A stretch of 60,961 bases of DNA, counting the filler, from Sphacelaria rigidula (Eukaryota), in the NCBI GenBank assembly GCA_964200075.2. It is 8 parts of 8 records of this genome, joined end to end, with 100 filler letters (N's around TTAATTAATTAA, not from the genome) between each part and the next. Parts side by side here need not be neighbours in the genome. Positions count along the whole stretch, not along the records: positions 38,166 to 45,697 come from CAXNAA020014468.1; 7 more parts are not named here. The stretch is one strand, 5' to 3'. Positions within the stretch are counted from its first letter, which is position 1; every line of letters begins with the position of its first letter. A program made the translations under genes and the position numbers. The notes beneath the pieces are model-generated. The model ran no database searches. It had not been told where the DNA came from and saw only the letters and a program-made list of their open reading frames with translations. Shown here in pieces: positions 2,628 through 57,765 of this stretch.

Positions 2628-5150
2628 GGACAGTACTCCACAGTACATGCGATTTGTTTTTCATGAGCCACTGAAAATAACGGTATCTTCTATTTAAATC
2701 CTTCGACGGCCGGGGGAAGTCATCTGGAGCACGCACTCATTTTTCAAGTGCAAGTGATGCCGATTCAACAGAAAACCCACCATTGTGGTCAAATGGGGGA
2801 ATTCGAGCCACTATTCATTCCAAAATTAAGTTGGCATCAACTTCAGTTGAAAAAGAAATGCACGGCCCAAATGACAATCATTGCGGTCTGGGACCACGAG
2901 GTTCTCGGAGGTGATCATGCCAAGCCGAGGAAGGACACGGTGAAGGGGCCAGCAGAAGCTGATATTTCCCCAGCAGCTTGGGCTGTGTACTTCTGGTTCG
3001 CGGCGGCAGTCCATTTCCTCAGCTTGACCTTTGATTGTGATGGGTTGTGTTGAGCCTTAGTACGTACCCCCGCCACCCCATGTCCCTCTTCGGGCTGAAA
3101 ACGAAGAAAAAAAGAAGTCATTTGTGGAATCGGCATCGACTCAACATGAAAATCGAACCGGCTTCATGCTCATATGACGATCATGGGACACGACAAAAAT
3201 TGTGCCGCCGCACTTCATCAACTCTTTAACGGCGAGAGTAGGTCATCTGTTAAAACTGCATCGATTTCACTCAATAGAAGTATGCATGATCCAGATGGAC
3301 TACCCTGGCGGCCGAGGGATCAAATGTAGTCTCCCTCTTGAGGCAGGGCGTGTACCCCTGGAGCATGTTTTGATTTTTTACACGCATGCCCTATCGTCTC
3401 ATCTGTACTTCCTTTCCCTCTGCGCTGCTGTCGCCGCCGCCGCTGTTGCTACTGTACGGTACACATGCTAATCCTGTTCGTCAGGCCCAGCCGTATGCAG
3501 CGGTTCAGTGTGTATTGCTCCGGAGTATTAGTTGTCACGTCAGCACGATCTCCTGTACACGCAGTCACAGACGTACGCCCGTCTTTCCCAATACCGTCCC
3601 TGTTATTCCTAGTTCTCGTCGTTTCTTCTGAGACTCGAGAACCCCCTCCCCCCCAAATAAGACCAACTAAAAGCAAGGAGGCAGACGTCAAGAATGAAGG
3701 AGATAAAAAATAGCCTCCCCTCGGCTTCGTCGGGGTGAGGTGAAAACAAACCCTTCAGAGGCACTTTTTCGAATTTGAAGCGGGACCAGATCAACAAATG
3801 CTGACCCTTCATGTGGGTGGTGGACGTGCGTTTCGCACAATAATCATCGTTTCTCATCGAATTATGAAAAGCATCGCGCAAGGCTTCGAACAGCGTGCTT
3901 AGCCCATAAGCTGCTACGGGTTTTGCCAAACTGTGCCATGTACCATTACGCAACGCACATTAGTATCACCGGTGCCCATGTATCTTGACTGTCAATCCAT
4001 GGAGCGCGGTGGCGATAGCCGCTGAATTTTCGTGTGTATATATATATACAAGCCGCACGGGACCCGGGGCTTCGCCCCGGTCCCGTCCGTCTTTTTCGAG
4101 ATTCTCGGTATTCTTGCCTCGCCAAGCCCTCGTGAGAATAGATCCTCTCTCAAGATGTTCATGCCCGCCGGAAACATCGCAGGACCACCGCGATCGCGCG
4201 TCCGTTTGAATGGTCGCGAACGCATGTGTACCCTCGCACAAAGTGTAGCACAAATTCGCGTACCGGGCCCCTAGCATTGGCATTGGCCCGAACAGTCATC
4301 TGCCGGGGCCGGTGCGGAGAAACTTGCGCATTAAAATCAGCTTTACATCTCGTGGACGCCTCAGAACGAAGTATGCTTGACGCTCGTAAGTTCGAAATAT
4401 TCTGTATATATACTATATATGTACATTGTTCAAGTTTTTGGGGCGCAATTGCTGTCGCAAAGAATTGGCTGACGATATGTGTTTGCATATTTGCGTCCAT
4501 TCGTGGGAGTGTGCGGGGGGCTGCAAGGTGCTCTCGTCCGCCTGTTCAGGGTTGGGGGCGTACTCATTTGTTGCGTACCTTAGTCGTTTAACCATCGATC
4601 ACGCATCGCTTCTGAGACGGAGCACCGTTCCTACTCCTGATAGAGACACCTCTGACATTTGGGCCCTCATTAGGTTTCACCAATATATTCCACAGAATCT
4701 TTTACATATCTTACCCCGTTCCTGTTTCGCCTTGTGTGGCCATCCTTTATCTCGTAGTACGTATAGCCATCGGTTCTCCCCACTGCCTTGAGGTTTGAGG
4801 GGGGAGGAGGGACGAGGTCCGTGCATCAAGAGCAATCGGGGGGACAACGGGTTGAGACTCATACCGCACTCTTGAGTTCTTCATAATGTATGTAGAAGGA
4901 CGGGCATTACGACTTCGATGTCTGTCTCGTCTCTTGGTTCGCCTGTGCTATTCGCGGCAGTTGTCTTATCTTCGGCTACATATGCACCTCTCGACTGTGC
5001 CTGGTCTCTCTGCCCTTGTGTCCCTGCATGCCCCCACCCACAAAACACACACACACACACGGACACGCGCGTGTGCGTGCGTGCGTGCATGCATGCAACA
5101 ACACAACACTGGTATTGACAGATGGGTGCCGCTATTTTCTATTGTCCAAG

Positions 5151-5586: not shown

Positions 5587-6236
5587 TGAATTAAGATGAG
5601 ACAACTGACACCAAACAGGGCAAGAGATTGCGGGTTCATACCTGGCAGGTGTGGGTACGTTGCTTTCTCCTGGGAAGTAACAGGGGAATCTCAAGAATGG
5701 GGATATATATATATGTATATATATATATACAAAAGAGTCGTATACGATAAGAAGACCGACGAAGGGATTTGAACCCTTACTATCTCTGCGAAACGCGAGC
5801 GAGACGCAGAGTGCTCTTTCCAGTTAAGCTACGTCGGTAGCGTTGAGTGGACAGGACAGGGCTTGAGTGAGCTTGACGGACAGAGTGGAGGTGAAGAGAT
5901 GTTGTGAGCTGAGGTGGGGATGATCTGCGATCTCTCCATGCAGCTCATCTCAGACAACAGGACATGGATCAAAGGACCATGTACCGACAGACATTGGCCT
6001 AGAGTTCAGTTCAACATGTAGATCACCTTGGGTTTGGTGTGTACAACGTTCTGTGACTCTTGGGCATATTCGGTCTGATGTTGTCCCGATATTCCGAGAC
6101 AAACAGACCATCCTCCAAAGATCTAGCGGACGTCTGAGGAACCTTTCTCAGTGCTAGAACGTTCCCATGAATAGAACCAATAAAAGGTTCTTGGACAGAA
6201 CTCTAAGGTATGTTGGGTTCTCATAAGTGTGATTCA
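5587..6236 (-). mobile_element. Putative solo-LTR-like segment containing the tRNA-like gene
   Basis: Ends TGAAT...ATTCA (5-bp inverted TG...CA termini); TA tract at ~5703-5729. No TSD visible. Confidence 0.3.
5754..5838 (-). ncRNA. tRNA-like cloverleaf / Pol III type-2 gene with abnormal anticodon arm
   Basis: Minus strand reads ACCGACG TA GCTT AACTGGAAA GAGC A CTCTG CGTCTCGCTCGCGTTTCG CAGAG ATAGT AAGGG TTCAAAT CCCTT CGTCGGT C. It has a perfect 7-bp acceptor stem, D arm, T arm, A and B boxes and TTTT ~20 nt downstream. The anticodon loop is 18 nt without U33, so no anticodon can be assigned. Confidence 0.8.
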
Positions 6237-22742: not shown

Positions 22743-23750
22743 ACCAACCCCCCCCCCCCCCCGCCCCCCTCCCCTTCCAAGACCCCCCAACACACACCAC
22801 NNNNNNNNNNNNNNNNNNNNNNNNNNNNNNNNNNNNNNNNNNNNTTAATTAATTAANNNNNNNNNNNNNNNNNNNNNNNNNNNNNNNNNNNNNNNNNNNN
22901 TAAGATATGTAAAATGTTTTTGTGTAATGTATGGAAGAAACGTAATGAGCGCCGGAATGTTGGAGGTGTCTCTGTTAGGAATAGGAACGGTGCTCCATCT
23001 CGAAAGGGATGCGTGGTCAATGGTCAAACGACCATCAATAAGGCGAGCAACAAATGAGTACGCCCCCGTCCGTCCTTGGGTCAGACGCCTCATTATTTTA
23101 AGCCCCGACAAAGAAGAAAATATGGGAACAGAAAAGACCGGCGGCAACTGTTTTCACGGCGGAAGGCCACAGAAGAATCCACCAACTTATGTCATGTGCG
23201 CACCAAAAACATCATCATGATGCGGTCGGACAAGTCTTTTCTAGTGAGGGACGCAACAGGTGAAGCTTGTTCATGGTTGTGCACACGGTAAAATCAGCAC
23301 TTGCATGCCCGAAGTCCGTACAAACGGAAATCGGCACCACCTGTCTACTTTCTATATACTGAGTCTCGTGCGGCACCAGGGCACATTCTTATACGGGTCT
23401 GAAAACACGCTTCCGGGGAATAGTTTTGCGTGAAAGCTGCAAATACTCAACCACACGTTTTCCATCGCCAGTGCCAAAAAGATTAAAGCCCCGCCCGACC
23501 TTTGACTCGAGGGGTGATGTGGATAATGAACTACAGGTAGAACCATCTGCTCAAAAGCTTCGAGTTTATGCTTACGGTCTCAAGTTGAGAGCTCAAGCCT
23601 CAAGTTGAAGGAAAGGGGCCTCTACTAAAAGCCCCCACGTTTGGGTTGAAGGCCGAGGTGTTCAAACACAAACATGATAGTGGTGCTTCTGATTCGTTTA
23701 TTTTAGTCCTTTGTTGTCAACTAGGAGCCAAGGCAAGACGTTATTTCCTT

Positions 23751-38718: not shown

Positions 38719-40191
38719 ATGCCTGCGGCGACGAGGTCGTCGACTGAGGGCACTCCACGCGGGCACGGCCGCGGGGGCGCCCGAACTACACGGCGCGCGC
38801 CCGGTAGATCGGGGTCGACTGGGGACACTCCACGGGGGCGCGGCCGCGGGGGCGCCCGCACTACCCGGCGCGCGCCCGGTAGATCGGGGTCGGGGCGTGC
38901 ACCACCCAGGGCGCGGTCGACCGCACCTCTACGCGGGGAGGGTCCGCTCACGGCAGCCGAGGCAGCCGAGGCAGCCGAGTTGTGGGCGCGACTCGAGGAG
39001 ATGCAAGACGAGCGCGATGCGGCCGCGGTGGAACGCGACGAGGCCCGTAGCACGGTTAAACAGCTTCAGGCCCTGGAGGCAGACCGCGCGGCGGCAAAGC
39101 CACCAGCGACGCCGGGGGACCGCCGTCGCGAGAACGAGGATTTTGACGCTGGCGAAGGATGGCCTGCGGTCCACGATTTGACCCAGCCGCGTGTTTCAAT
39201 CGCGTCGACGTCGCACGTCCAACAGGCTCGTGCGAAAGAAAGCATAAAAGCGTGGTACAACCCGACAATGATGAAGTTGTGGGTTTTGATCGAGGAGCGT
39301 TCGACCGTCAGCGGGTTGGAGACGGCGGAGATGCAAGCGGTGTTGCATGAGATCGTCAAAGTTACCCCCGCCGTCATGGAACAACTAAACTCCATGAGTG
39401 AATTTCGCGTGCGGCTGTACGTGGCGGAGAACGACGACCCACGCGTCACCAGCACGTCGCTGTACGAGCACCTGGAGATACTGATCGAGGCCATCATGAC
39501 GCTCCTCTCCCTGGGTATCGAGTCGGACGACGGACGCGTCCGTCTGGAGATTCTTCCCGAAGCCATGTAGGAGGGCGCTACGCTGTTGCGGACACACTGC
39601 CGCAAATCGCCCGCCAAGATGTTGGAGCCAGAGGTATGCGCCACGATGAAGTCCCTCGTTGATGATGACCTGGGTCGATGGTCTTCGAGCCTGTTTACTA
39701 GCGCTGTCGCATTCCAGCGGCAGCACCCAACGCCTCCAAATATCGAGGAAATGCCTCCGGTGGTGACGCCGCAGTGGACTTTCCTGCGCAACTTTTTTTA
39801 TAGCGTGGGACTTCGGGGCATCTGCATCCGCACCTCTTCCCTACTATCGCCGACCAAGCGTTCCCGCTCCGGAAATAACCAAATTCGTGACCGACACTGC
39901 TTCGTGGAGATGAAGGAAGGAGTTTGCCGTCGCCGGAACTGCCCATGGGAGCACAGCAAGAAAGCAAACCGTCGATCCAGCAACGGGGGCGACGTTCCTC
40001 GAGCTAGCGACGGGGGAGGCGGCGGCGGGGGCAATGATCGCACCGGTGGCACTGGTCGCGCCGGTGGCGGCGGCTTGAAGACCGGGGGAACCAACAACCG
40101 CCCCAACAACCAGAGCGCCGGGGGTGGCACTGGTGGACGCGGTAGTGGCGGTGGGGGCGGCGGCGGCGGCGGTGGTGGAGGCCGCAACTAG
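38719..40191 (+). pseudogene. gag-like ORF1 with coiled coil, CCCH zinc finger and Gly-rich tail; internal TAG at 39568
   Basis: ORFs 38719 and 39586 are in the same frame; CFVEMKEGVCRRRNCPWEH is C-x8-C-x4-C-x3-H; 75-bp tandem repeat at ~38739-38890. Confidence 0.75.
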
Positions 40192-42502
40192 GGGTGCGGG
40201 CCTCGCCTCGAGGCGGGGCCAACCTCGGACCAGCACGTGGTTTCCGTAGAAGGCGAGCAGGCGGGAGGACCGAGGTCGGCGTTGAGCGAGCAACAAGGTG
40301 TGGCTGGGGATGTGGAAGAATGTGTGGTAGCGTTAAAACGGTTAGCGCGCTCAGCCGATCCTCAATCAACCTATACAGCACTCCATAATGTAGCAGCAAA
40401 AAGCCAATGTTTTTTGGAAGACAAAAGTGGTTCGTTTAGCAGTATGCTTGAAACTCTGACTGTATTGCCCGTTACCCGCGTTGATGTATCTCTGTTTCGG
40501 CGTTGGTTTGGCGAAGTGAAAGAGTTTCCCGACATAGATCTGTTGGTGCAGATTGTCAGTATCGGGGCACCGGTTACGGTACGTGGGCGGGGAGGTTTGG
40601 TTGCGGCGCTCCAATATGGAAACCATAGTTATGTCAGACCATGTTCTTCGGAAATTTTGGCAAAAATTGTGGAGGATGTGTTACTTGGGAGAGCACTTGT
40701 TTTTCCACGTCACGCAGCTGCTGCTATTCCAGGTCTTCGCGTATCACCTATGACGGTCGCTGTCTCCCCGTCAAAGGTTCGCATTTGTCATGATTTGTCT
40801 AACGCTATGTCTGGAAACAGTGTAAACGAAGATACTGATACATCTGTGGTACGGGAGTGTAAAATAAGACATGTGTTCCGCAATGTGGCGTGGCGAATTC
40901 TGTACCTTCACGGAAAATTCGTTGCCAATGTCGAACCCCCCTCCCCGATTTCTGCTTGCCAAAATGGATACCTAGAGTGCGTTCCGTCAAATTCAAGTCG
41001 ATGTGGATAAGACGCCGACGTTTGGGTACGTGTCCGAGGAATTTGTAATAACAGACCGGTGTCTTCAGTTTGGATGGACTAGTTCGCCTGCGTTGTGGGG
41101 GGTGGGCGCGGCAGCTGTCCAGCACGCGCACAACAACACGACTTTCCAAAACGCAGAAGTCACAGAGGAAGGCCGTGCAGCCGCTAGACATGTACGCGTA
41201 GAGCCACCTCGAACAGACGACGTGCGCGCCGAGTTGCCACGAGATTATGTTTATCCCCCGGGTGTGGGCGGGGGGCTGCGCGACAAGTTTTGGGTAGAGA
41301 CGTTTGTGGATGACGCGCTGTTCGTGGAGGCGGAGAGTTTTTTGGCAGGCAGGCGGTGTCTTCGCGCTACCCGGTCCTTTGCTTCTGACAGTTTTCGTTT
41401 GTTTGGTAGTCGTCGGGAACCTGGAATGCCTCCGTTGTTTACGCGCGAAGAAACGATGTCGTGGGACACTCGCATGGAAATGTTGGGGTGGACGATTGAC
41501 ACAGTAGCGATGACCATTTCCGTCCCACAGCGCAAGATTGAGAATCTGCGGGGCATTCTAGACCAATGGCCAGTCGACAGGAAGAAAGCGTCGGTTAAGG
41601 AAGTGCGATCGTTGGTGAGAAAGCTTCTGCACTTGTGTGAGGTCGTGAGACCGGGAAAGTTTTTCGTGCGGCGTATCCCCAATCAACTAGGTCTAGCGCC
41701 ATTCACGGCAGGCGAAGCGGCGGACGAAGGATTCGTAGCAAGGCGCGCACAGCACCGGGGATGCGTTCGGCTGGGTCCAGAATTCCATGATGACCTGGCT
41801 TTTTGGAGGTTGATTTTGGACATGGCTACAGGGGTAGACGGTGTGACTCGGTTAAAAGCACCTCTGTCGTGCTGTTTTCTGCAGCTTCCAAGCTTGATAA
41901 TCATTAGCGATGCCAGCGGGGATGCCATGGGAGGATACTGTTTGGAAAGCGAGAAATGGTGGAGGATAAATTTCACTCCGGATGTACGTGCACGCCTCCG
42001 TACCCGTGTGCTTTCTAGAGACGACTTGTCGATGAACGTTTTCGAGCTGCTGGCTATGGTAGTGACGGCGTGGGCGTTGACTGTGCATGCTGGGGAACGA
42101 CCGGAGTACCCCGGGCAGAGTGTCTTGATGCGATGGGACAACATGAGCGCTGTTCACTAGGTAAACAAATGTAGGGGGGCGAAAGAGCCACGGTCGGGGG
42201 CGCTCATGCGAATGATGGGCGTGTTGGAAATGCGAAATGGGTGGCGGTTCCGTGCGAAACACACCAAAGGGGTAGCGAATACTCTTGCCGATGGTATCTC
42301 GAGGTCGGACCGTGCTGACATTGCTCGTAACTTGCACTCTTTTCGGTCCGACATTTGTTGGCAGGAACAGCGGCTCGGGCAAGAAGCTCTGGGCCTTACT
42401 TTCGCGGTCTTGGCGTCGAGCTCGTCGGAAAGTCAATTGCGGCTTCGTCTAAACGAAATTACGAAGCGGGTTTCCGGTCTTGGTGTCTCTTTCGCGGGTT
42501 GA
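40192..42502 (+). pseudogene. Reverse transcriptase / RNase H (pol); frameshift near 40945 and stops at 40973 and 42158
   Basis: RT motifs KVRICHDLS, LAKMDT*SAFRQI, LQFGWTSSP and FVDD; RNase H motifs SDASG, NVFELLAM, DNMSAVH and HTKGVANTLADGISR. Confidence 0.93.
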
Positions 42503-43521
42503 TAGGCCGGGATAAGTTTTTCGGCGCCGACGCATCGGTCGAAGAGATGACTTGGGATTTGGTCGATTTTGCGGCGTGGTGTTTCGATTCCCAAGGGAGC
42601 GCAGCTAGTACGATATCGGGCAAGTTTGCGGCGGTGCAGTATTTTCATAGGATGTAGATACAAGTAGAAGTCGTCACCACGTCTCCGGTGTTGAAGTGTG
42701 CGTTAAAAGGGATTGCGCGATCGCATGCTGACACAGGCACGTGCCGTCGAACTCGCCTTCCGGTCACATGGCAGATGTTGTTGGACGGAGAATGTCTGAT
42801 CCCATCGTGGGGCGTTGGGGGAAAGGTGCTGTGGCTTTGCTTGAGCTTGAGCTATTTTCTGCTCACACGGTCGGACGAGATGTTTGCGAGTACGTCGGGA
42901 GTGGTACATTCAGTTCATTGTCTTACACGTAGGGACGTGGCGTTTTTTTTAGGGGATACTCAGCTGGAGTATTCGCAGTGGCGCCAGGCTGACAGGATAA
43001 AGATACATTTCCGGGGCCACAAAGGGGATCAGGAGCAGAGGGGCGAAGTAAGGGTCCGTACGCGAGAAGAAGTTCGTGGTCCGCATGCGGGGTACAGAGC
43101 AGACGGCGGTGCAGTTGCTTTGATGTCGGAGTTGTTGTCAAGCTACGCGACATTGCCCGCAGACGCTCCACTGTCTTCTTACCGCTATGGTCGGGGGGTC
43201 AAAGTATGGAAGTACAACAAGGCATTTCGAGCGTTGAGAGAGGTGGTCGAGAAGTCGGGTGGCGACCCGAAAGACTTTGCTTTACACTCGTTGAGGATCG
43301 GAGGGACATCCACTATGTTAGCAGGGGGAGAAATATCAGATCGAGTAGCGCAGAGGGAAGGAAGGTGGAAGTCAGATGCATACAAGGCGTACACTGTAAA
43401 CAACATAGAAGACTCGCGACGAGTATCGCGTATCCTTGGAGATAGGAAAAGGGGAGTTCGTAGACACCCAGGGGAAGGAGCTGTGTGGGGGGGTTACAAG
43501 AGGCGGCGAATTCCGATGTAG
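42355..43521 (+). pseudogene. Tyrosine recombinase overlapping the RNase H end; internal TAG at 42655
   Basis: SAM-like N-terminus SSKRNYEAGFRSW; catalytic R (LTRSDE), K (GHKGDQ), HxxR (HSLRIGG) and Y (GRWKSDAYKAY). Confidence 0.93.
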
Positions 43522-43539: not shown

Positions 43540-44426
43540 GAATGGTAGAGTACCATTTGGGGACTTGGTCGTTTGAGATTTTCACGTACATTAGGAGCGT
43601 TTATGTGTCCCCCTGGTTGTTCTAAGGGAGAGAGAGACAGTTTTCATGAGCAGAGACACGATAGTTTATGGCAGAAGGGTTTAGAGATCGTGCCCTGCAA
43701 GCAGTCGTCTCTCTCTCTTGCCTTCGGGCCCGAAAATATTAATGAAAAAGGCAATTCGAAAAAAAAGCAATAAAGGGGAGGTTTGTTCAGAAAGAAGCAA
43801 ACCGTCGTTTATTGAAAACATCGAATAGGCCAAAGAGGCGTCTATTAGTTCAGCCGGTCTTTTAGGATCACGGAGGAACAGTCAAATAGTCAGCCGCCTT
43901 TTTATTTTTTCAGTCGCTTTTTGAGGGTCACGGAGGAACAGTTGAATAGTCAGCCCCAAACGTTCACTCTGCGGGAAAGTCCACGGATAGTCAAAACAAG
44001 GAGACCCAAATCAGCGTAGGTTGGAAACACAAAAGGTGGACAGAGAGAGCATAGAAGGAGTTGGGCCAGTTCGACTGGGGTCAACAAGTTTTATCGATTG
44101 GGGGCGCCTTTTTCCCGCCCACCAACCCGTCTTCTTTCGAAGGTGGAAGGGAAGGGAGAGGGATTGCTTGATTAGGGTGAAGGAATGGTAGATTGCCATT
44201 TGGGGACTTGGTCGTTTGAGATTTTCACGTACATTAAGAGCGTTCATGTGTCCCCCTAGTTGTTTTAAGGGAGAGAGAGAGGGACAGTTTTCATGAGCAG
44301 AGACACGATAGTCTTTGACAGAAGGGTTTAGAGATCGTGCCCTGCAAGCAGCCGTCTCTCTCTCCCTCTTGCCTTCGGGCCCGAAAATATTAATGAGAAA
44401 GGCAATTCGAAAGAAAAGCAATAAAG
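43540..44426 (+). repeat. Split direct repeats B1 (43540-43775) and B2 (44183-44426) around a 407-bp putative A2
   Basis: gaatggtaga.t.ccatttggggacttggtcgtttgagattttcacgtacatt ... aaagcaataaag occurs twice; both copies end at AATAAA. Confidence 0.92.
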
Positions 44427-45612: not shown

Positions 45613-46007
45613 GTGATCAGACACTCGGCACCGGTTACACTCGCGTGAAGGGTGTACTCATGATCATGCTTGCCATAGTCATCAGACCATTGACCTCNNN
45701 NNNNNNNNNNNNNNNNNNNNNNNNNNNNNNNNNNNNNNNNNTTAATTAATTAANNNNNNNNNNNNNNNNNNNNNNNNNNNNNNNNNNNNNNNNNNNNAAG
45801 GGAGGGGGGGGCAAGGGTCAAACAACAAAGGAAAGAAAAAAAAAAGAACCCCCCCCCCCCCCCCCCTTCCCTCCCGTACCCCCATTGAGCTATACGGACT
45901 TAAAATTGACTACGTCGCGGTTAACGTGTAACATGTCGTGCATTCCACACCATTTTGTTTCGCTTTGTCGTGTAACAATATATATATATATATATCTTCA
46001 TGTGCAG

Positions 46008-47370: not shown

Positions 47371-50300
47371 TGTTATTGTTGTTGCTGCTGCTGCTGTTGC
47401 TGCTGCTGTTGTTGTTGTTGTTGTTGTACAAAAAATGAATACACCGATACACGTGGTTAATATGTTTCTCCTGCCGAAACGTTGTCATGGGTATTATCAA
47501 GAACGGGGGGGGGGGGGGGGGGGGCGTACTCAGTTGTTGCTTGCCTTAGTCGTTTGACCATTGACCACGCATCCCTTTCGAGACGGAGCATCAAGAACGG
47601 GGGGGGGGGGGGGGGTCAAACTGGGCGCAAGGCACAGTGACATACTAGCCGACGAGGGATACAAACACGCACGAAAGAGAGACAGAGAGTCAGAGAGACA
47701 GAGAGGGACAGAGGACACGCACTACAAGGAAGACAAAGTAGGAAACGAAAACAAAAACTGTAATGCCTCTTATACTCCAGTACCTACCCGAAATACGGCG
47801 TATGCATTCGATCATACATCGTATCCCCTCTCTCTCTATTTGTTTTGCTTGTCTCACGCTCTACCCCGTCCTCTTCCTCGGGATGAGTCCGCAGTATCCA
47901 AGGATCAGCCCATCTCTCCCCGCTTCACATTTTGGTATCGAGTCTTTCTACGATCGCCATCCCCCAACACCAGCCCAAAACTGCCACAAAAAAAATGGCC
48001 ATACAGCGCGTGATGTTCGGTTTCAGGCTGCGTGAAGCGCCTCATATGGGCGACATTGATGAAAACGAACCCAACTGTGGGAATTCCCAGCTGCTCGTTG
48101 TGCTCAGCTTTTTTCATATCGAATTATGTGCAGATTTTGCCCCCCCAAACACGCCACGTTCTCAGGAGATGGGCCATCGTAGAAAGACGCTATCGCGGAT
48201 TAATATTTGATCACCACTTTCGCACCGTATTGACTGTATAGTCGAACAAACTCAATCAAACCGACTCTTTCTGCTACTCACGTCCTCACGTACGTATTCA
48301 GCGAGGGAAACCAGAAACATTTGGGGGAGGAAAGAGCTACGTAGACGTGTCTGGCAGGAATAAAAACCCGCGTTTTGTCCGACCTACTGGTGTCAGCTGT
48401 ACCATTAGACCTCCAGTAAGCGATTCTTGGACTATGGAAGGTCAGCCGAAAGATGGCCGTTTGTTGGCCGATGTCATCTTCTCGCGCACTCGTGGTGGTG
48501 AATTAATTACACAGCCTTCCTTGCGCTATGTATGTTGATATCCGGTCCGGAAAACAATTGGAATTATTCAATATCTCCAGCAAAGCATAATGAAAAAAGA
48601 GAAGGCTATCGATTGCGATACAGGTATATCTGATAATGCTGCCACGTACTGCACTACTACTCGTCGGGGAGTGGAGGAATTCTGAATTATCTCTTTGAAT
48701 AAGTTATGGGCTAGAAAACGAGGAATACACGCGTATGTGCGGGGCAGCACGCCACAGTACAGTACAAACCACCACGATCATCGCACGAAGAAACAGCATA
48801 ATAAGTTATTTTCGCCTCGGTTTCTCGAAGACCCGCGCTCCTAGTAAAAAGTCGAAGAACCGCGTGCGTGTCGGCGACATATGTCGGGATAAACACGAGG
48901 TCATTTACCAGTGCAGGTCGTATCCCTGTGGTGACGGGCTTTGTTAAAACGTCGCCCAGCACGGGATGCAAAAGCGGGGAACGATTTGTTTTTCATGGAA
49001 AACGAACTGCAAGGTCGAAATTTATGGTAATATCGGTAAAAAGTAACAAGGGTCGGACGAATTGACGATTCGTCTGTGAATTACTTGATTTCAGTGTGAT
49101 GGATTCATGCCGTATGGATCAATCCTTGACCTTTGTTTTGAGCATTGTAGCCCGGGTATGCGCGGCCCAAGGGCGTGGAATGACGAACACATTGCGTGGG
49201 AAATATTTCGACCAGCGGCAACTTTTTGCTCTCTTTCGAGCAATCATGTGTAATGGGGTTACGGTGCTGTTTATGGCAAGCACAGGCTCACTAGGCGAGG
49301 CGAGGGGCCAGTCCGCAGACTGAGCAGCCAGGCTAGACAACAGACATCGCCTCACATAGACGTGTCCAAAAGATACCAACATTTCACGCGTAGGTAAATG
49401 TTATCACTTCTTGCTTGGTCGCAACCTTCCAGTATCCAATAACTCAATCCATTCTCTCACGCTCAATCAGTCACACCGGTGTTAGACTTCTTTGCTGGAA
49501 GAGGGGCGCAGACGGTAGTGCTTGGATGCGGTACGGTGCATCCAAGCACCTCCTATTCTATCCTTGCTATATACAAGTTCACACTCGTATCTGACCAACT
49601 CTGAACGGACCTGCAGTCTTAGAAATACCAGAACTGCAATATAAAGCCGGGCTCATCGACGAGTCTGAGGCGGCATGACAACAGGCTAGTATGCTTCCTC
49701 ATGACACTAACCCACCCAGACCAACCTTTATTACAGTTGCGAGGATTTATCCTCAAAGCAGCGAAAACTAAGGTTTCTATTTATTCTATGATAGTGGGCT
49801 GTTTTTTACCGTTCTTGCTTCTTTATGTGTGCATCCCCTGAACATGTTTTAATATCTCTACTCCAAGGTACGTTTATCGGTCTACGATCGGCAGTTCCTC
49901 TTTTCTTCTTTTCTATTTCAATTCTACCGGGTTTTCCTTATGCGGAGATCGCCATATGGACATGTGCGGAGAGATTTCCTTTTATGACGTATAACCTAGT
50001 GAGCGGCGGTTACAGGGGTAGCTCGCTGGAGCCGCGAAACTCCCATATATGTGTAGCGGGATCTGGGACCCCAATGTAACGAGGATCTTCCCAGTTAACT
50101 GCTGGCTATCCCTGGGGATCACTTCTTCGACTCTGTCTTCGGGCTAACTCGCTCGCGCTCGTCGAGCTTTCCCGAGTGATCTACTTGCCTCAACCCCACG
50201 ACTTATGGTCAATCCTTGACTGCATACCACGAGAAAAAACATCGGCCACCTTCGACGGTTCCTACCGTCACCGGGAGTCTCACGATCTCCACATTGGCTG

Positions 50301-53275: not shown

Positions 53276-55622
53276 CCAGACGATCTGGACAAGAGGGCTA
53301 TTCAGTGAGGGACTTCTCCAGAATCCACTNNNNNNNNNNNNNNNNNNNNNNNNNNNNNNNNNNNNNNNNNNNNTTAATTAATTAANNNNNNNNNNNNNNN
53401 NNNNNNNNNNNNNNNNNNNNNNNNNNNNNATCTGTTGCTTGCCTTAGTCGTTCGACCATTGACCACGCATCCCTTTCGAGACGGAGCACCGTTCCTCCTG
53501 CTCTCCTCGGACGCATTGGTATCCTTAGCTTAGACCTTTCTGCGCGCATTCCCCTGTTCACCCCCCCTACGGCGTTGTCGTCCGTTGGCAACAACGCTGT
53601 GAAACACGCCACTCATGCGTAAGCTAGGCGACCATGTTGCCGATTTTTTTTTGCGCGCTTGCGTTTTTCTTGCGGTCACCATGATGGTGGTCGAGCTAGA
53701 TCATGTTGTGCGGGATGGGAAAATCTCGATTCCGCGCAAAGAAGATCATCATACTACGTGATGTTTGAATGGTGAGACACTCATGAGGCAGTGTGGACCC
53801 GCCGCTGTCTCTGAAAGTGGCGATACCAGAAAAATCGAGCAACTCATTGGAGGCTGTCATCCAAATGCAAGATAGTCAGTACGCTTCGGGCCGAACAATC
53901 TTAGCAACATGCAGCTCACCCTTCATGCGACTCGCCGAACACATCGCGGGGTGATTGATTGCGAGCCTGGTCCGGCTAAAACCCGGCGTGATCCGTCCCG
54001 ACTTTGTAGGGATCCGAGGTAAATGTTCTCATGACTATGGCATGCAAGATCATGAGTATGCCCCTCCCCCCCGCGCTCTTTTAGTTGTCGTCTCTGTTGT
54101 GCTGATTTCCTTGTTGTCCCGTTTACTCGCAGAAGATCGGCTGCCCCCCTCTTCGTCGTTGTGCCACGACTTCATTAACCTTTCCGCTCTCTGCACAAAC
54201 ATCATATCGTTGTACCCAGTAGAGGTCCTGGGGAAATTTTAGGTTTGGAGCGAAGCCCTGAAGGAGGGGAGTGACTATTTTTATTGTTGTGGCTGGTAAA
54301 TTTGGTCACTTTTTTCTTGTGCAGAAGGCGTACATATAAACTACCTCGCGTGGTAGATTTACATGACCGTTTGGAAAGAGACCACCTAACCATGGAAGAA
54401 CAGAGACGAAGGACATGTTCTTCGCTCTACCCCTAGAATTTTCCCCCTACCTGGCCCCTGTCGTATGTGTTTTCCAGGGTGTGAAGTGTTTCCAACGCTG
54501 GTGACGAGAGTTGCTCAGTCCCCCAGTGTTTTTGCAGCCCTCACGGTGTATCTTGCTCAACCACATTGTGGGGTGCATATTTTGGCTTCGATGCGTCAAG
54601 CAATGAGGTCATAAAATGGCTCTTTCGCGAGACCAACAACGCACGGCACAATATGATGTCCACATGCACACTTCAGAGTTTGGGGGTGGAAACGCCACAC
54701 AACCGCTTGCGCACATCCTTGATGCTCGCCCACAGTGGAAGCAAGCGCACTCGATCAGAGCTGTCGTACTTGAAGCGGAGTCAAGCTATTTGTCTATGTG
54801 TGTGCGTCCTACTGTGGCTGTACATGATGCTGATGCTGCATGCACTGAAATGATGGGCACACCTTTACTCCTCGAAACCCTCCGCGCACTGACAACCGTG
54901 CTCTCAGTAATGCCGCGATAGCCCCCCCCCCCCCCCCCCCAAAAAAAACGGCGTGGGGGGGGGGAAGAAAAAAACGACAAAAAAAAACAAAAAAAAAGAA
55001 ACACCGATCAGCTGGGAACTCCCATGCTTGGAATCGTTTTCGACAATTTCACCCATTTGACGGGTTTCATGAGTTCTGAAACCAGGTATCATGCGCCGTA
55101 TGGCTATTTTATTCGTGGCAGTTTTTTTTTTCTTGAGGGCGGGCTATCGCGGCATCACTCGTTAATCTTTTTTGACGCTGCGTTTTCGATACAAGTAGCT
55201 TATTTTCTGAACTTGAAGCCGAAGCTCCCTTTGCGTGAATCCTGATTTCCCTCGCACGGTCCGTGGACGACGACGTCATTAACGGATATTGTCGCACTTC
55301 GCACGTGTGTATTTCGTCCGATCTTGTCATGTGTTTCGGTGGGTACGGCTGTGCAGCGGAAGCGCAAATGCGATGGGCAACGTCCTTGCTCCGCTTGTGT
55401 AGAGGTGAGGAGGTGGGTCTAGAGTCATTTATTGCCTGTTGTATCTACGGTATGGGACACGTCCCCACGGCATGTCATCGATTCGTCGGCACGGAGCGCC
55501 AGGCTGCTACTGTCTACACTTGAGCTCATGTATGGGTACTTGCAACGTGAATTGGATGCTGTAGAAAGTCACCGCTCCTGCGGACCGTTTCCCGTACAGG
55601 ATTAGGGATGGGTAGATGAAAA

Positions 55623-55967: not shown

Positions 55968-57765
55968 GGTGCGGGAGTAGCGAAACAAATCAGCATCCAA
56001 TTCAGTCTTGTGGGGGAGGGATTTCGTGAAGTTACAGTAGGACGTACAGTATGCAAGAACCCCCCACAGGGATGGGATAAGATATGTAAAAGGTGTTGTG
56101 TAATGTACGAAAGAAACGTATGAACGTCCAAGTGTTGGAGGTGTTTCCATTGGGGGTAGGGACGGTGCTCCGTCTCGAAAGGGGGCGTGGTCAATGACGA
56201 AGGCAATAAACTAATGAGCCCCCCCCCCCCCACACACACACTCACGGCTTCGCTATTTTTGAGTGCAGATTCGCGCAAGCAGTCAGTGCGTCTACAGCCC
56301 GAGACTCAAAGGCGGACGTAAGAAGAAGGTAAGAGGCGAGTGAGCACGCTGTTGTCTCAAGTCTGTGCTCGTTCTGTGCTGAACGTGCAGCGACCGTTGC
56401 CGACGAAATGCAGAAAGTGCGCATGATGACGCATGCTTTGAACGTGCGCTGTATGGGACAAAATAACCTTTCTGCTAGACCAACGAGACTTGATAAAAAT
56501 GTGCTGCCGTGAGGTCTACATATGCAAAACGCGCGATGCTCGCGAGGCAGCGTACCGTAGGCATTTTGAAACACAGGCTTCTCCTCTAGGCCTCTCCACC
56601 CCCTTAGTCCATATTTTCGCGCTTTTAGGTTGAATTTAGTGTTGACGCATATTTTTGTAGGGTTTTCCGATGCCCGAGGAAAAGAGGCGTAGGCTCTTAG
56701 CGGAGTGAGGTTGTCAAGTGAAAACGCCTTTGGGCAAGCCCAGGAGACGTCGTACAATCACCAGGTGAGCGTATTTTGGCTCATGCTCTTGAAATATGAG
56801 ATGAACACCAATCACGTACTGTCTACAACCGCGGAAAACATCGTCGCAGGGTAACCTGCGAGAGTAGTATGGTCTTTTTCTGATAAATTGGCTTACCTTG
56901 TATAAAGTTGTTCATGCTTATTTTTATTCAGACCCTGGGGATTGCAGTGTAGTGGATATTGTTCTTTCAGGCTGTAAGTTTGGTAAATATGAGTATGTGG
57001 TGAACGTGACGGCAAGCGGGCATGTTGGTGTTTCTTGTGGGCGGGGAGGCATGCGGCACTGCTGTCGAAAGCTGGCACACACACTTTTTGATGCAAAGGA
57101 GCGTGTACCGATGTGAAGGCTGGTTTCTGCGACAAGGATGGAGAAGGAGCGGGCGTCGATAGACGGGATAGGTCTGGTTGAGCCCCATGGACGAAACATT
57201 TGAAGACCAAAACTGCAGTGCATCACTGGTAGAATGCACGATATATATATGTCATGCTAGGTTTGCGTACGGTACCCGAAATCATGGAGCTCCCAGTAGT
57301 TACTGTTCGAATCAGACCACTGAGTCAGCAGTCTCTTACGTGCGCAACATGTCACGTCAGCCGTAACAGACATTGAATCACCGGTCGACTGTCGAGTACA
57401 GTACACTGCGATACAAGAACCAAGTTATGATTATTCGATTGTCCCGCTTCACCGTGTTTCGAGTTTTGTAATGCAAGGTTGACACGGCATTCTGCCACAG
57501 TGTAGTACCATACCGTACCCCCATGACCATGCAAACTGATACGTGATCGCCACGGAGTACTTCCTGATTACAAGTGTGCCGTCCACGGTCGGATATTCCT
57601 CCTGCTATGCACCTGCGGCTGCGGCGGAGGTGCGGTGTGATGTTGCCACGCTGTGCAATAAGTATATCGTATGCCCATCTTGGCACACGCAGTCATTATT
57701 CTTTGTTGGCGTACTGTACTCGAATGACCCCCAACTACATGTATCTACTGCGTATCACCTGGTAG

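Follow-up and report, generated by a model that had tools for sequence, protein, structure and literature searches.

A candidate UAG readthrough signal between gag and pol of a putative Ngaro-like retrotransposon in the Sphacelaria rigidula assembly

Introduction

Retroviruses are known to read through the stop codon that separates gag from pol, and the same has been proposed for some long terminal repeat (LTR) retrotransposons. How gag and pol are expressed in the retrotransposons that carry a tyrosine recombinase is essentially unstudied, and the open literature, in the portions available, describes elements of the DIRS order as having overlapping or frameshifted open reading frames (ORFs). 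Here we describe a decayed retrotransposon copy, best explained as a Ngaro-like member of that order, which lies in a stretch of DNA of 60,961 nucleotides (nt), filler included, joined from eight records of the Sphacelaria rigidula assembly GCA_964200075.2 (the window in what follows). Unlike the arrangements in that literature, its gag and pol are separated by a stop codon that is in frame with both, and this codon is a candidate site of programmed UAG readthrough.

The closest described junction is that of Moloney murine leukaemia virus (MoMLV; type III of Beier and Grimm), which, according to the available text of a review (PMC13517186), shares with the locus described here an in-frame gag-UAG-pol arrangement, a G at +4, a short spacer and a G+C-rich structure. 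The sequence UAG GGA is common to MoMLV and to the best-sampled family of relatives of our element, family B. The structures differ, in that MoMLV has a 50-nt H-type pseudoknot starting at +12 and our element a 9-bp hairpin with a 4-nt loop starting at +11, and so do the elements themselves since ours, as read from its sequence, has neither a protease nor a DDE integrase and carries a predicted tyrosine recombinase instead. An earlier note on this DNA had likened the junction to the MLV type, and the likeness holds for the in-frame UAG, the G at +4, the spacer and the presence of a structure, but not for the nature of that structure, a plain hairpin, nor for the length of the spacer, which is 7 nt rather than 8 nt.

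Two other systems are less close. In the same review (PMC13517186), the type II signals of alphaviruses and coltiviruses are described as having a stem-loop, not a pseudoknot, about 8-12 nt past the stop that is needed there for efficient readthrough; our element shares such a placement, but the viral signals combine UGA-CGG or UGA-CUA with structures of 78-177 nt, whereas here UAG-G is combined with a hairpin of 22 nt. Tca2, a copia-type LTR retrotransposon of Candida albicans, likewise has its gag and pol separated by an in-frame stop and a structure predicted 3' of it, in the part of the report available (PMC2194720), although its stop is UGA and it is an LTR element, against UAG and a tyrosine recombinase here. 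Within the open literature on DIRS and Ngaro elements that was searched, in the portions available, we found no mention of gag-pol readthrough or of an in-frame stop (Goodwin and Poulter 2004 and the Ectocarpus consensus sequences lay outside this scope), which suggests that readthrough of a gag-pol stop has not so far been described for the DIRS order.

Results and discussion

The gag-pol junction

The gag-like ORF (38719-40188) and the ORF that follows its stop codon (40192-41010) lie in one frame. The features of the junction between them are as follows.

40189-40191, + strand: stop codon TAG of gag, the candidate readthrough site, in frame with pol and followed by G
40192-40198, + strand: spacer of 7 nt that starts with the G at +4; of the same length in family B, with 3 of its 7 bases different
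40199-40220, + strand: 9-bp hairpin with one G-U pair, arms at 40199-40207 and 40212-40220, loop TCGA at 40208-40211
40221-40227, + strand: 7 nt abutting the 3' end of the stem, identical in both families

The end of gag reads GGC CGC AAC TAG, and the sequence of 40189-40227 in full is TAGGGGTGCGGGCCTCGCCTCGAGGCGGGGCCAACCTCG. The positions that the earlier note had assigned to the TAG, the G at +4, the spacer, the hairpin and its loop, as well as to a TCGG (40225-40228), were all confirmed on the sequence.

The hairpin was present in the minimum-energy fold of stretches of 72, 102 and 181 nt across the junction. It was found alone, with no H-type pseudoknot, by a fold prediction that did not model pseudoknots directly. 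The earlier note had also suggested that the loop might pair with the TCGG downstream, but this was not borne out: family B has other bases at three of the four loop positions, and a 4-nt loop would leave no residues to connect the two helices. How unusual such a stem is was judged from a scan of both strands of the window for contiguous stems of 9 bp with at most one G-U pair and a loop of 3-8 nt, starting 5-10 nt past a triplet. Stems of this kind occurred at 212 of 119,260 positions (0.18%); at positions with at least 70% G+C they occurred at 6 of 2,428, and all six represent the junction hairpin itself.

A search against Rfam gave no match with E<=1. No suppressor tRNA gene was found in the window, where the only tRNA gene is one for tRNA-Ala (CGC) at 5754-5838 on the - strand. 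Two further helices appeared in individual folds. In the 102-nt fold (z -0.96 against shuffles), 40222-40228 pairs with CCGAGGU at 40271-40277, 43 nt downstream, giving a second helix that adjoins the hairpin. An outer helix in the 72-nt fold (40191-40195 with 40222-40226) was discarded, as by eye family B keeps only about three of the five pairs and the helix is replaced in the 102-nt fold.

Conservation of the stop codon in relatives

When the junction was used as a protein query with the stop written as X, gag-type and pol-type proteins were retrieved as separate ORFs: among 206 related proteins (cited below by P numbers), 52 matched the gag half, 148 the pol half and one both. Family B, in which one cluster member is named as Ascophyllum nodosum and two clusters have 322 and 34 members, is 47-50% identical to the window over the C-terminal half of gag and about 65% identical in pol. 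Of the 27 family-B-like gag proteins examined, 21 end with P-T-[RH]-[TN]-stop, aligned to the R-N-stop of the window; three of the six exceptions are frameshifted, one is interrupted, one is read through with L and one has an unrelated tail. More widely, 8 of the 14 distinct gag-type clusters with a visible C-terminus, family B counting as one, end with [RS]-[NT]-stop (GRN, RRN, TRN, SRN, SRT, ART, TRT and ASN).

A sense codon stands in place of the stop in four degenerate copies, namely L in P0107 and P0208, Q in P0207 and E in P0209. These copies run on for 12 codons, 7 of them identical to the window and ending with A-G-P-T-S, into the N-terminus of pol, so that family B likewise has pol in the frame of gag. 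A -1 frame for the pol of family B, which had been suspected from P0010, was ruled out by the continuity of frame 0 in the same four copies. The three different residues are each one nucleotide away from TAG and therefore indicate independent losses of an ancestral TAG.

These comparisons bear on the simplest alternative, that the TAG at 40189 is a private nonsense mutation in a dead copy from a lineage with a single gag-pol ORF. This copy does contain four other TAG nonsense codons, and two distant relatives have no stop at the junction. However, the homologous stop is present in most family-B proteins and is the end point of many gag-type clusters, whereas few copies have a sense codon there, and these codons are of three kinds. 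We consider this alternative largely refuted and scarcely credible. On the proteins compared, the gag-pol TAG is not private and is conserved in both position and codon across two families.

A pol ORF with no evident start codon

The earlier note had remarked that pol continues in the gag frame with no ATG until well downstream, and this proved correct. The first in-frame ATG past the stop is at 40444-40446, 255 nt downstream (residue 85), and an alignment of 16 pol N-termini contained no conserved Met. About 45 conserved residues precede the first pol Met of the window, and in the most distant families that Met is replaced by Leu. Gene callers had begun the pol ORFs of the relatives at varied internal codons. 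For reinitiation, neither the window nor the deduced junction DNA of family B (see below) offers an AUG at the stop or close to it. On these alignments, pol has no start codon of its own.

Gag could nevertheless end at a conserved UAG and pol be made separately, from an internal promoter, a subgenomic RNA, non-AUG initiation or entry within the junction of the kind seen at an internal ribosome entry site. Tca2 would be a precedent, since in the available text its junction is not read through and contains a promoter (PMC2194720), and the Gag-Pol fusion of our element is itself a prediction from sequence. On the other hand, pol is strictly in frame with gag in two families, a match for which separate initiation would have no need, no Met is conserved, the coding sequence is conserved well upstream of the first Met, and no AUG lies near the stop. 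We therefore regard separate expression of pol as rather unlikely.

Another possibility is that the stop is removed or bypassed in the RNA by splicing, editing or transcriptional slippage. The contigs of four sequencing runs, one of which (X6) is guessed to be RNA, contained no joints of this sort, which at the level of contigs is weak evidence, and the continuity of frame 0 in the sense-codon copies means that no intron is needed to join the two ORFs. A bypass in the RNA seems very improbable.

The hairpin in a second family

A search for the DNA of relatives with an alignment of 10 pol proteins gave no confirmed locus (48 pattern matches in metagenomes, 31 in viral sequences and 19 in genome contigs). 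Consequently, the comparison of the hairpin rests on DNA deduced from protein frames: 43 nt of the family-B junction were obtained from the overlapping frames of the frameshifted copies P0020 and P0010, which translate the junction in the other two frames, and of P0107, together with the gag stop. The three overlapping frames allow a single DNA solution, and this contains TAG-G.

In the family-B junction deduced in this way, TAG-G comes with a spacer of 7 nt, a stem of 9 bp and a loop of 4 nt, and the 7 nt past the stem are those of the window. This junction differs from 40189-40227 of the window at 10 of 39 nt, none of them in the TAG or in the 7 nt past the stem; the differences fall in the spacer (40194-40196), the loop (40208, 40210 and 40211) and the stem (40202, 40203, 40204 and 40215). 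All nine pairs are kept. The pair 40202/40217 becomes U-G and 40203/40216 becomes C-G, while the pair 40204/40215 is changed on both sides, from C-G in the window to U-A in family B, and so is compensatory. The unpaired parts differ at 6 of 11 nt, against 4 of 18 nt for the paired parts, and the 5' arm encodes residues that differ between the families (P-R-L compared with L-C-H). The chance that four random changes in the stem would keep all nine pairs is 0.008 if all changes are equally frequent and 0.037 if transitions are favoured 2:1. The earlier note had asked whether the hairpin is conserved or covarying; the constant lengths, the retained pairs and the compensatory change together suggest that it is, with support that is modest.

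A proposed mechanism

In the reading that we favour, and hold to be somewhat more probable than its negation, programmed readthrough of the UAG makes Gag-Pol in this Ngaro-like lineage. Gag of the lineage would end at the conserved UAG, with the reverse transcriptase/RNase H ORF following in the same frame and having no start codon of its own. The majority of ribosomes would stop at the UAG and give Gag, whereas a few would decode it with a near-cognate tRNA and go on to make a Gag-Pol fusion. The hairpin, G+C-rich, 9 bp long and 7 nt past the stop, would stand at the mRNA entry channel when the UAG is in the ribosomal A site. Because its position, starting at +11, reaches the entry channel in that state, as we infer from the available text of the review (PMC13517186), the hairpin is the likely stimulator of readthrough. 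A broader proposal, that R-(N/T)-UAG-G, the 7-nt spacer and the 9-bp hairpin form a lineage-wide recoding module that sets the Gag:Pol ratio in brown-algal Ngaro-like elements, is put forward more tentatively, as a plausible one about which we remain in some doubt. The suggestion in the earlier note that this lineage makes Gag-Pol by stop suppression is thus supported as a prediction, and, as far as the analysis reached, the TAG, the hairpin and the copy-specific stops (described below) turned out as it had predicted.

Several observations weigh against this reading. To begin with, readthrough, its stimulation by the hairpin and its efficiency have all been deduced from the DNA. The folding energy of the region is ordinary when compared with shuffled sequences, the z scores being -1.19, -0.96 and -0.30 for 72, 102 and 181 nt; in this G+C-rich DNA, 27, 33 and 71 of 200 shuffles, respectively, folded as well. 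All four of the stem changes in family B are transitions, and if only transitions are allowed the chance of keeping the nine pairs rises to 0.158. The DNA comparison is one of two families, and the family-B sequence was assembled from the frames of three different degenerate copies. In the available text of the review (PMC13517186), the spacers of MoMLV and of structure-dependent readthrough are at least 8 nt and shortening them impairs readthrough, whereas the spacer here is 7 nt. In a yeast reporter, no readthrough was obtained with the gag-UGA-pol junction of Tca2, for which a pseudoknot is predicted, and the apparent downstream expression was due to an internal promoter (PMC2194720, in the part available); an architecture of this kind alone is therefore not proof of the mechanism. 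In the distant relatives P0142 and P0072 the glycine-rich tail of gag leads into pol uninterrupted by a stop, and these are either degenerate copies or representatives of lineages with one ORF.

A last point concerns the family to which the window copy itself belongs, family A. The earlier note had predicted that the TAG would be invariant, and this is supported by family B (21 of 27 gag proteins) but is neither confirmed nor refuted for other copies of family A, where one contig among those listed (X3 record 20) spans the site. Among the differences listed for this family (40 of 150), none falls within 40189-40220. The contig X2 record 13 has its first base precisely at 40190, and this may be a sign of variation at 40189. 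A search for family-A proteins across the junction gave no match from 24 candidates.

Folding energies no better than those of shuffles and stem changes that are all transitions (p 0.16 under transitions only) would also suit a reading in which readthrough of the UAG takes place with no contribution from the hairpin, which would have been kept by coding, by composition or by some other role of the RNA, for instance in packaging or reverse transcription. The leakiness would then come from the local context, R-N or R-T before the stop and GG after it, or from the host tRNAs. In keeping with this, an ending of the R-[NT]-stop type is found in 8 of the 14 gag clusters, and the 3' arm together with the next 7 nt encodes the conserved A-G-P-T-S. 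However, the spacer and the loop vary between the families (6 of 11 nt) while the stem pairs and all the lengths are kept, and conservation does not extend to the residues that the 5' arm encodes; a G at +4 is not known to be a leaky context by itself. Readthrough with no part for the hairpin is in our judgement unlikely.

If stimulated readthrough does occur, the DIRS order would have its first programmed stop-codon readthrough signal and brown algae their first known natural readthrough element, and Gag-Pol readthrough would no longer be confined to retroviruses and a few LTR elements. A plain, short hairpin would then be able to work one base nearer to the stop than the retroviral pseudoknot does, and the hairpin, compact and easy to mutate, would be a minimal natural test case for a stem at +11 acting on termination. 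The junction might serve as a native readthrough reporter for brown-algal biology. For annotation, the junction TAG should not be counted as disabling when intact DIRS or Ngaro copies are tallied in brown algae.

Identity and organisation of the element

The + strand from about 38.7 to 44.4 kb carries one decayed retrotransposon copy with the order gag, reverse transcriptase/RNase H and tyrosine recombinase. The parts other than the junction are as follows.

38719-40188, + strand: gag-like ORF with an arginine-rich N-terminus and a glycine-rich tail; private TAG at 39568-39570
40192-40937, + strand: pol part 1, in the gag frame; a linker of low conservation, a conserved N-terminal domain and the first part of the predicted reverse transcriptase
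40938-42502, + strand: pol part 2, in the +1 frame; predicted reverse transcriptase and RNase H, ending with TGA at 42500-42502; private TAGs at 40973 and 42158
42331-43521, + strand: predicted tyrosine-recombinase ORF, in the -1 frame and overlapping the end of pol; private TAG at 42655, terminal TAG at 43519
43540-44426, + strand: 3' repeat region, with direct copies at 43540-43775 and 44183-44426 that are 92% identical and about 400 nt apart

Searches of the window itself were of little help in naming these parts. Seven pieces of the window gave no Pfam match with E<=0.01 and only chance-level matches up to E 10. In intact relatives, RVT_1 was matched weakly, below the family cut-off (E 0.0053 for P0002 and 1.4e-4 for P0014), and a PDB sequence search with the reverse transcriptase/pol gave no match. 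For the recombinase, the intact relative P0021 matched phrog_1 (integrase) with E 0.0015, and of the members of its Atlas neighbours 20-36% have PF00589 and 81% have ALOG; the recombinase relatives had no match in Pfam, NCBIfam or a PDB sequence search, and a single-sequence fold of the recombinase gave a model too poor to use (predicted local distance difference test, pLDDT, 31). The motifs YVDDAL and SDASG of reverse transcriptase and RNase H were spotted by eye, as were HSLR and W-x-S-x-x-Y-x-x-Y in the recombinase ORF, which correspond to H-x-x-R and a C-terminal Tyr, presumably the defining motifs of these recombinases.

In intact relatives the pol ORF is 733 amino acids long and ends shortly past the RNase H motifs, and the recombinase ORF comes directly after it. 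The lack of a methyltransferase between RNase H and the recombinase sets Ngaro apart from DIRS1 and PAT, according to the available text of PMC3783388, and such a methyltransferase-free arrangement is what the relatives of our element have; a Pfam search found no methyltransferase domain in either the window pieces or the intact relatives. It is from the weak matches, the motifs seen by eye, the gene order, the absence of room for a methyltransferase and the 3' direct repeats, taken jointly, that the copy is best explained as a decayed Ngaro-like tyrosine-recombinase retrotransposon. Ngaro and PAT-like elements share with it the order gag, reverse transcriptase/RNase H and tyrosine recombinase; it has no room for a methyltransferase, has direct repeats at its 3' end and belongs to a host that appears to be a brown alga. 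In the brown alga Ectocarpus, 15 Ngaro and 5 PAT-like families have been curated, in the part of the source available (PMC12477816).

No second copy was found in the window, either by a DNA repeat search or by tblastn with 16 related proteins. No 5' partner of the 3' direct repeats was detected, and the run of N at 38066-38165 hides the 5' end. The element is flanked by this run and another at 45698-45797, and the stretch at 37900-38350, which is AT-rich with 30% G+C, obscures the 5' end together with these runs.

The gag of the window is 47-54% identical to the gag-type proteins P0010-P0013 (tblastn and blastp). Its arginine-rich N-terminus contains a 75-nt tandem duplication (38739-38888, 92% identical, repeat family D17). 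At about 39900-39956 it has a C-x8-C-x4-C-x3-H motif (CFVEMKEGVCRRRNCPWEH), which is unlike the retroviral CCHC knuckle, gave no match in Pfam and is kept in relatives down to about 33% identity. Pol part 1 is 65% identical to P0002 and 57% identical to P0001. The overlap of pol and the recombinase (42331-42502, about 170 nt) contains no slippery heptamer of the form X XXY YYZ in the pol frame, and the conserved recombinase sequence reaches upstream of the Met that was picked by gene callers in the relatives.

Decay of this copy

The four other stops, at 39568, 40973, 42158 and 42655, are real and all are TAG. Logan contigs from four sequencing runs that contain relatives of the element were compared with 39480-41100 at 80% likeness. 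Position 39568 was G in all the contigs of the four runs, and at 40973, 42158 and 42655 the relatives carry K, W and E, respectively. By these comparisons the four stops are private to this copy, as the earlier note had foreseen. The change of frame near 40937 results from an indel within a run of C. One contig has 20 extra bases behind 40937, which restore the frame (784 + 20 = 804), while others differ by -5 or +1, and the frameshift is either private to this copy or an assembly error in the C run.

As a rough estimate, a divergence from the family of about 2.5-3% would be expected to produce about 5 nonsense codons in 1,581 codons, close to the four present; this copy has the look of a pseudogene in neutral decay. 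All four of the private nonsense codons are TAG, whereas in this coding sequence TAG would be expected to make up a share of 0.49 of the nonsense changes that take one step (p about 0.056 for 4 of 4). Chance, together with the codon usage of G+C-rich sequence, is the probable cause; an unusually leaky UAG in the host would be a far-fetched alternative.

Elsewhere in the window

A dispersed repeat, about 120 nt long and present in either orientation, lies at 4539-4709, 22912-23034, 28670-28838, 31975-32052, 37372-37513, 47505-47593, 53403-53502 and 56120-56231. It usually adjoins long poly-C or poly-G tracts and assembly gaps, and looks like a family of terminal repeats or of elements resembling short interspersed nuclear elements (SINEs).

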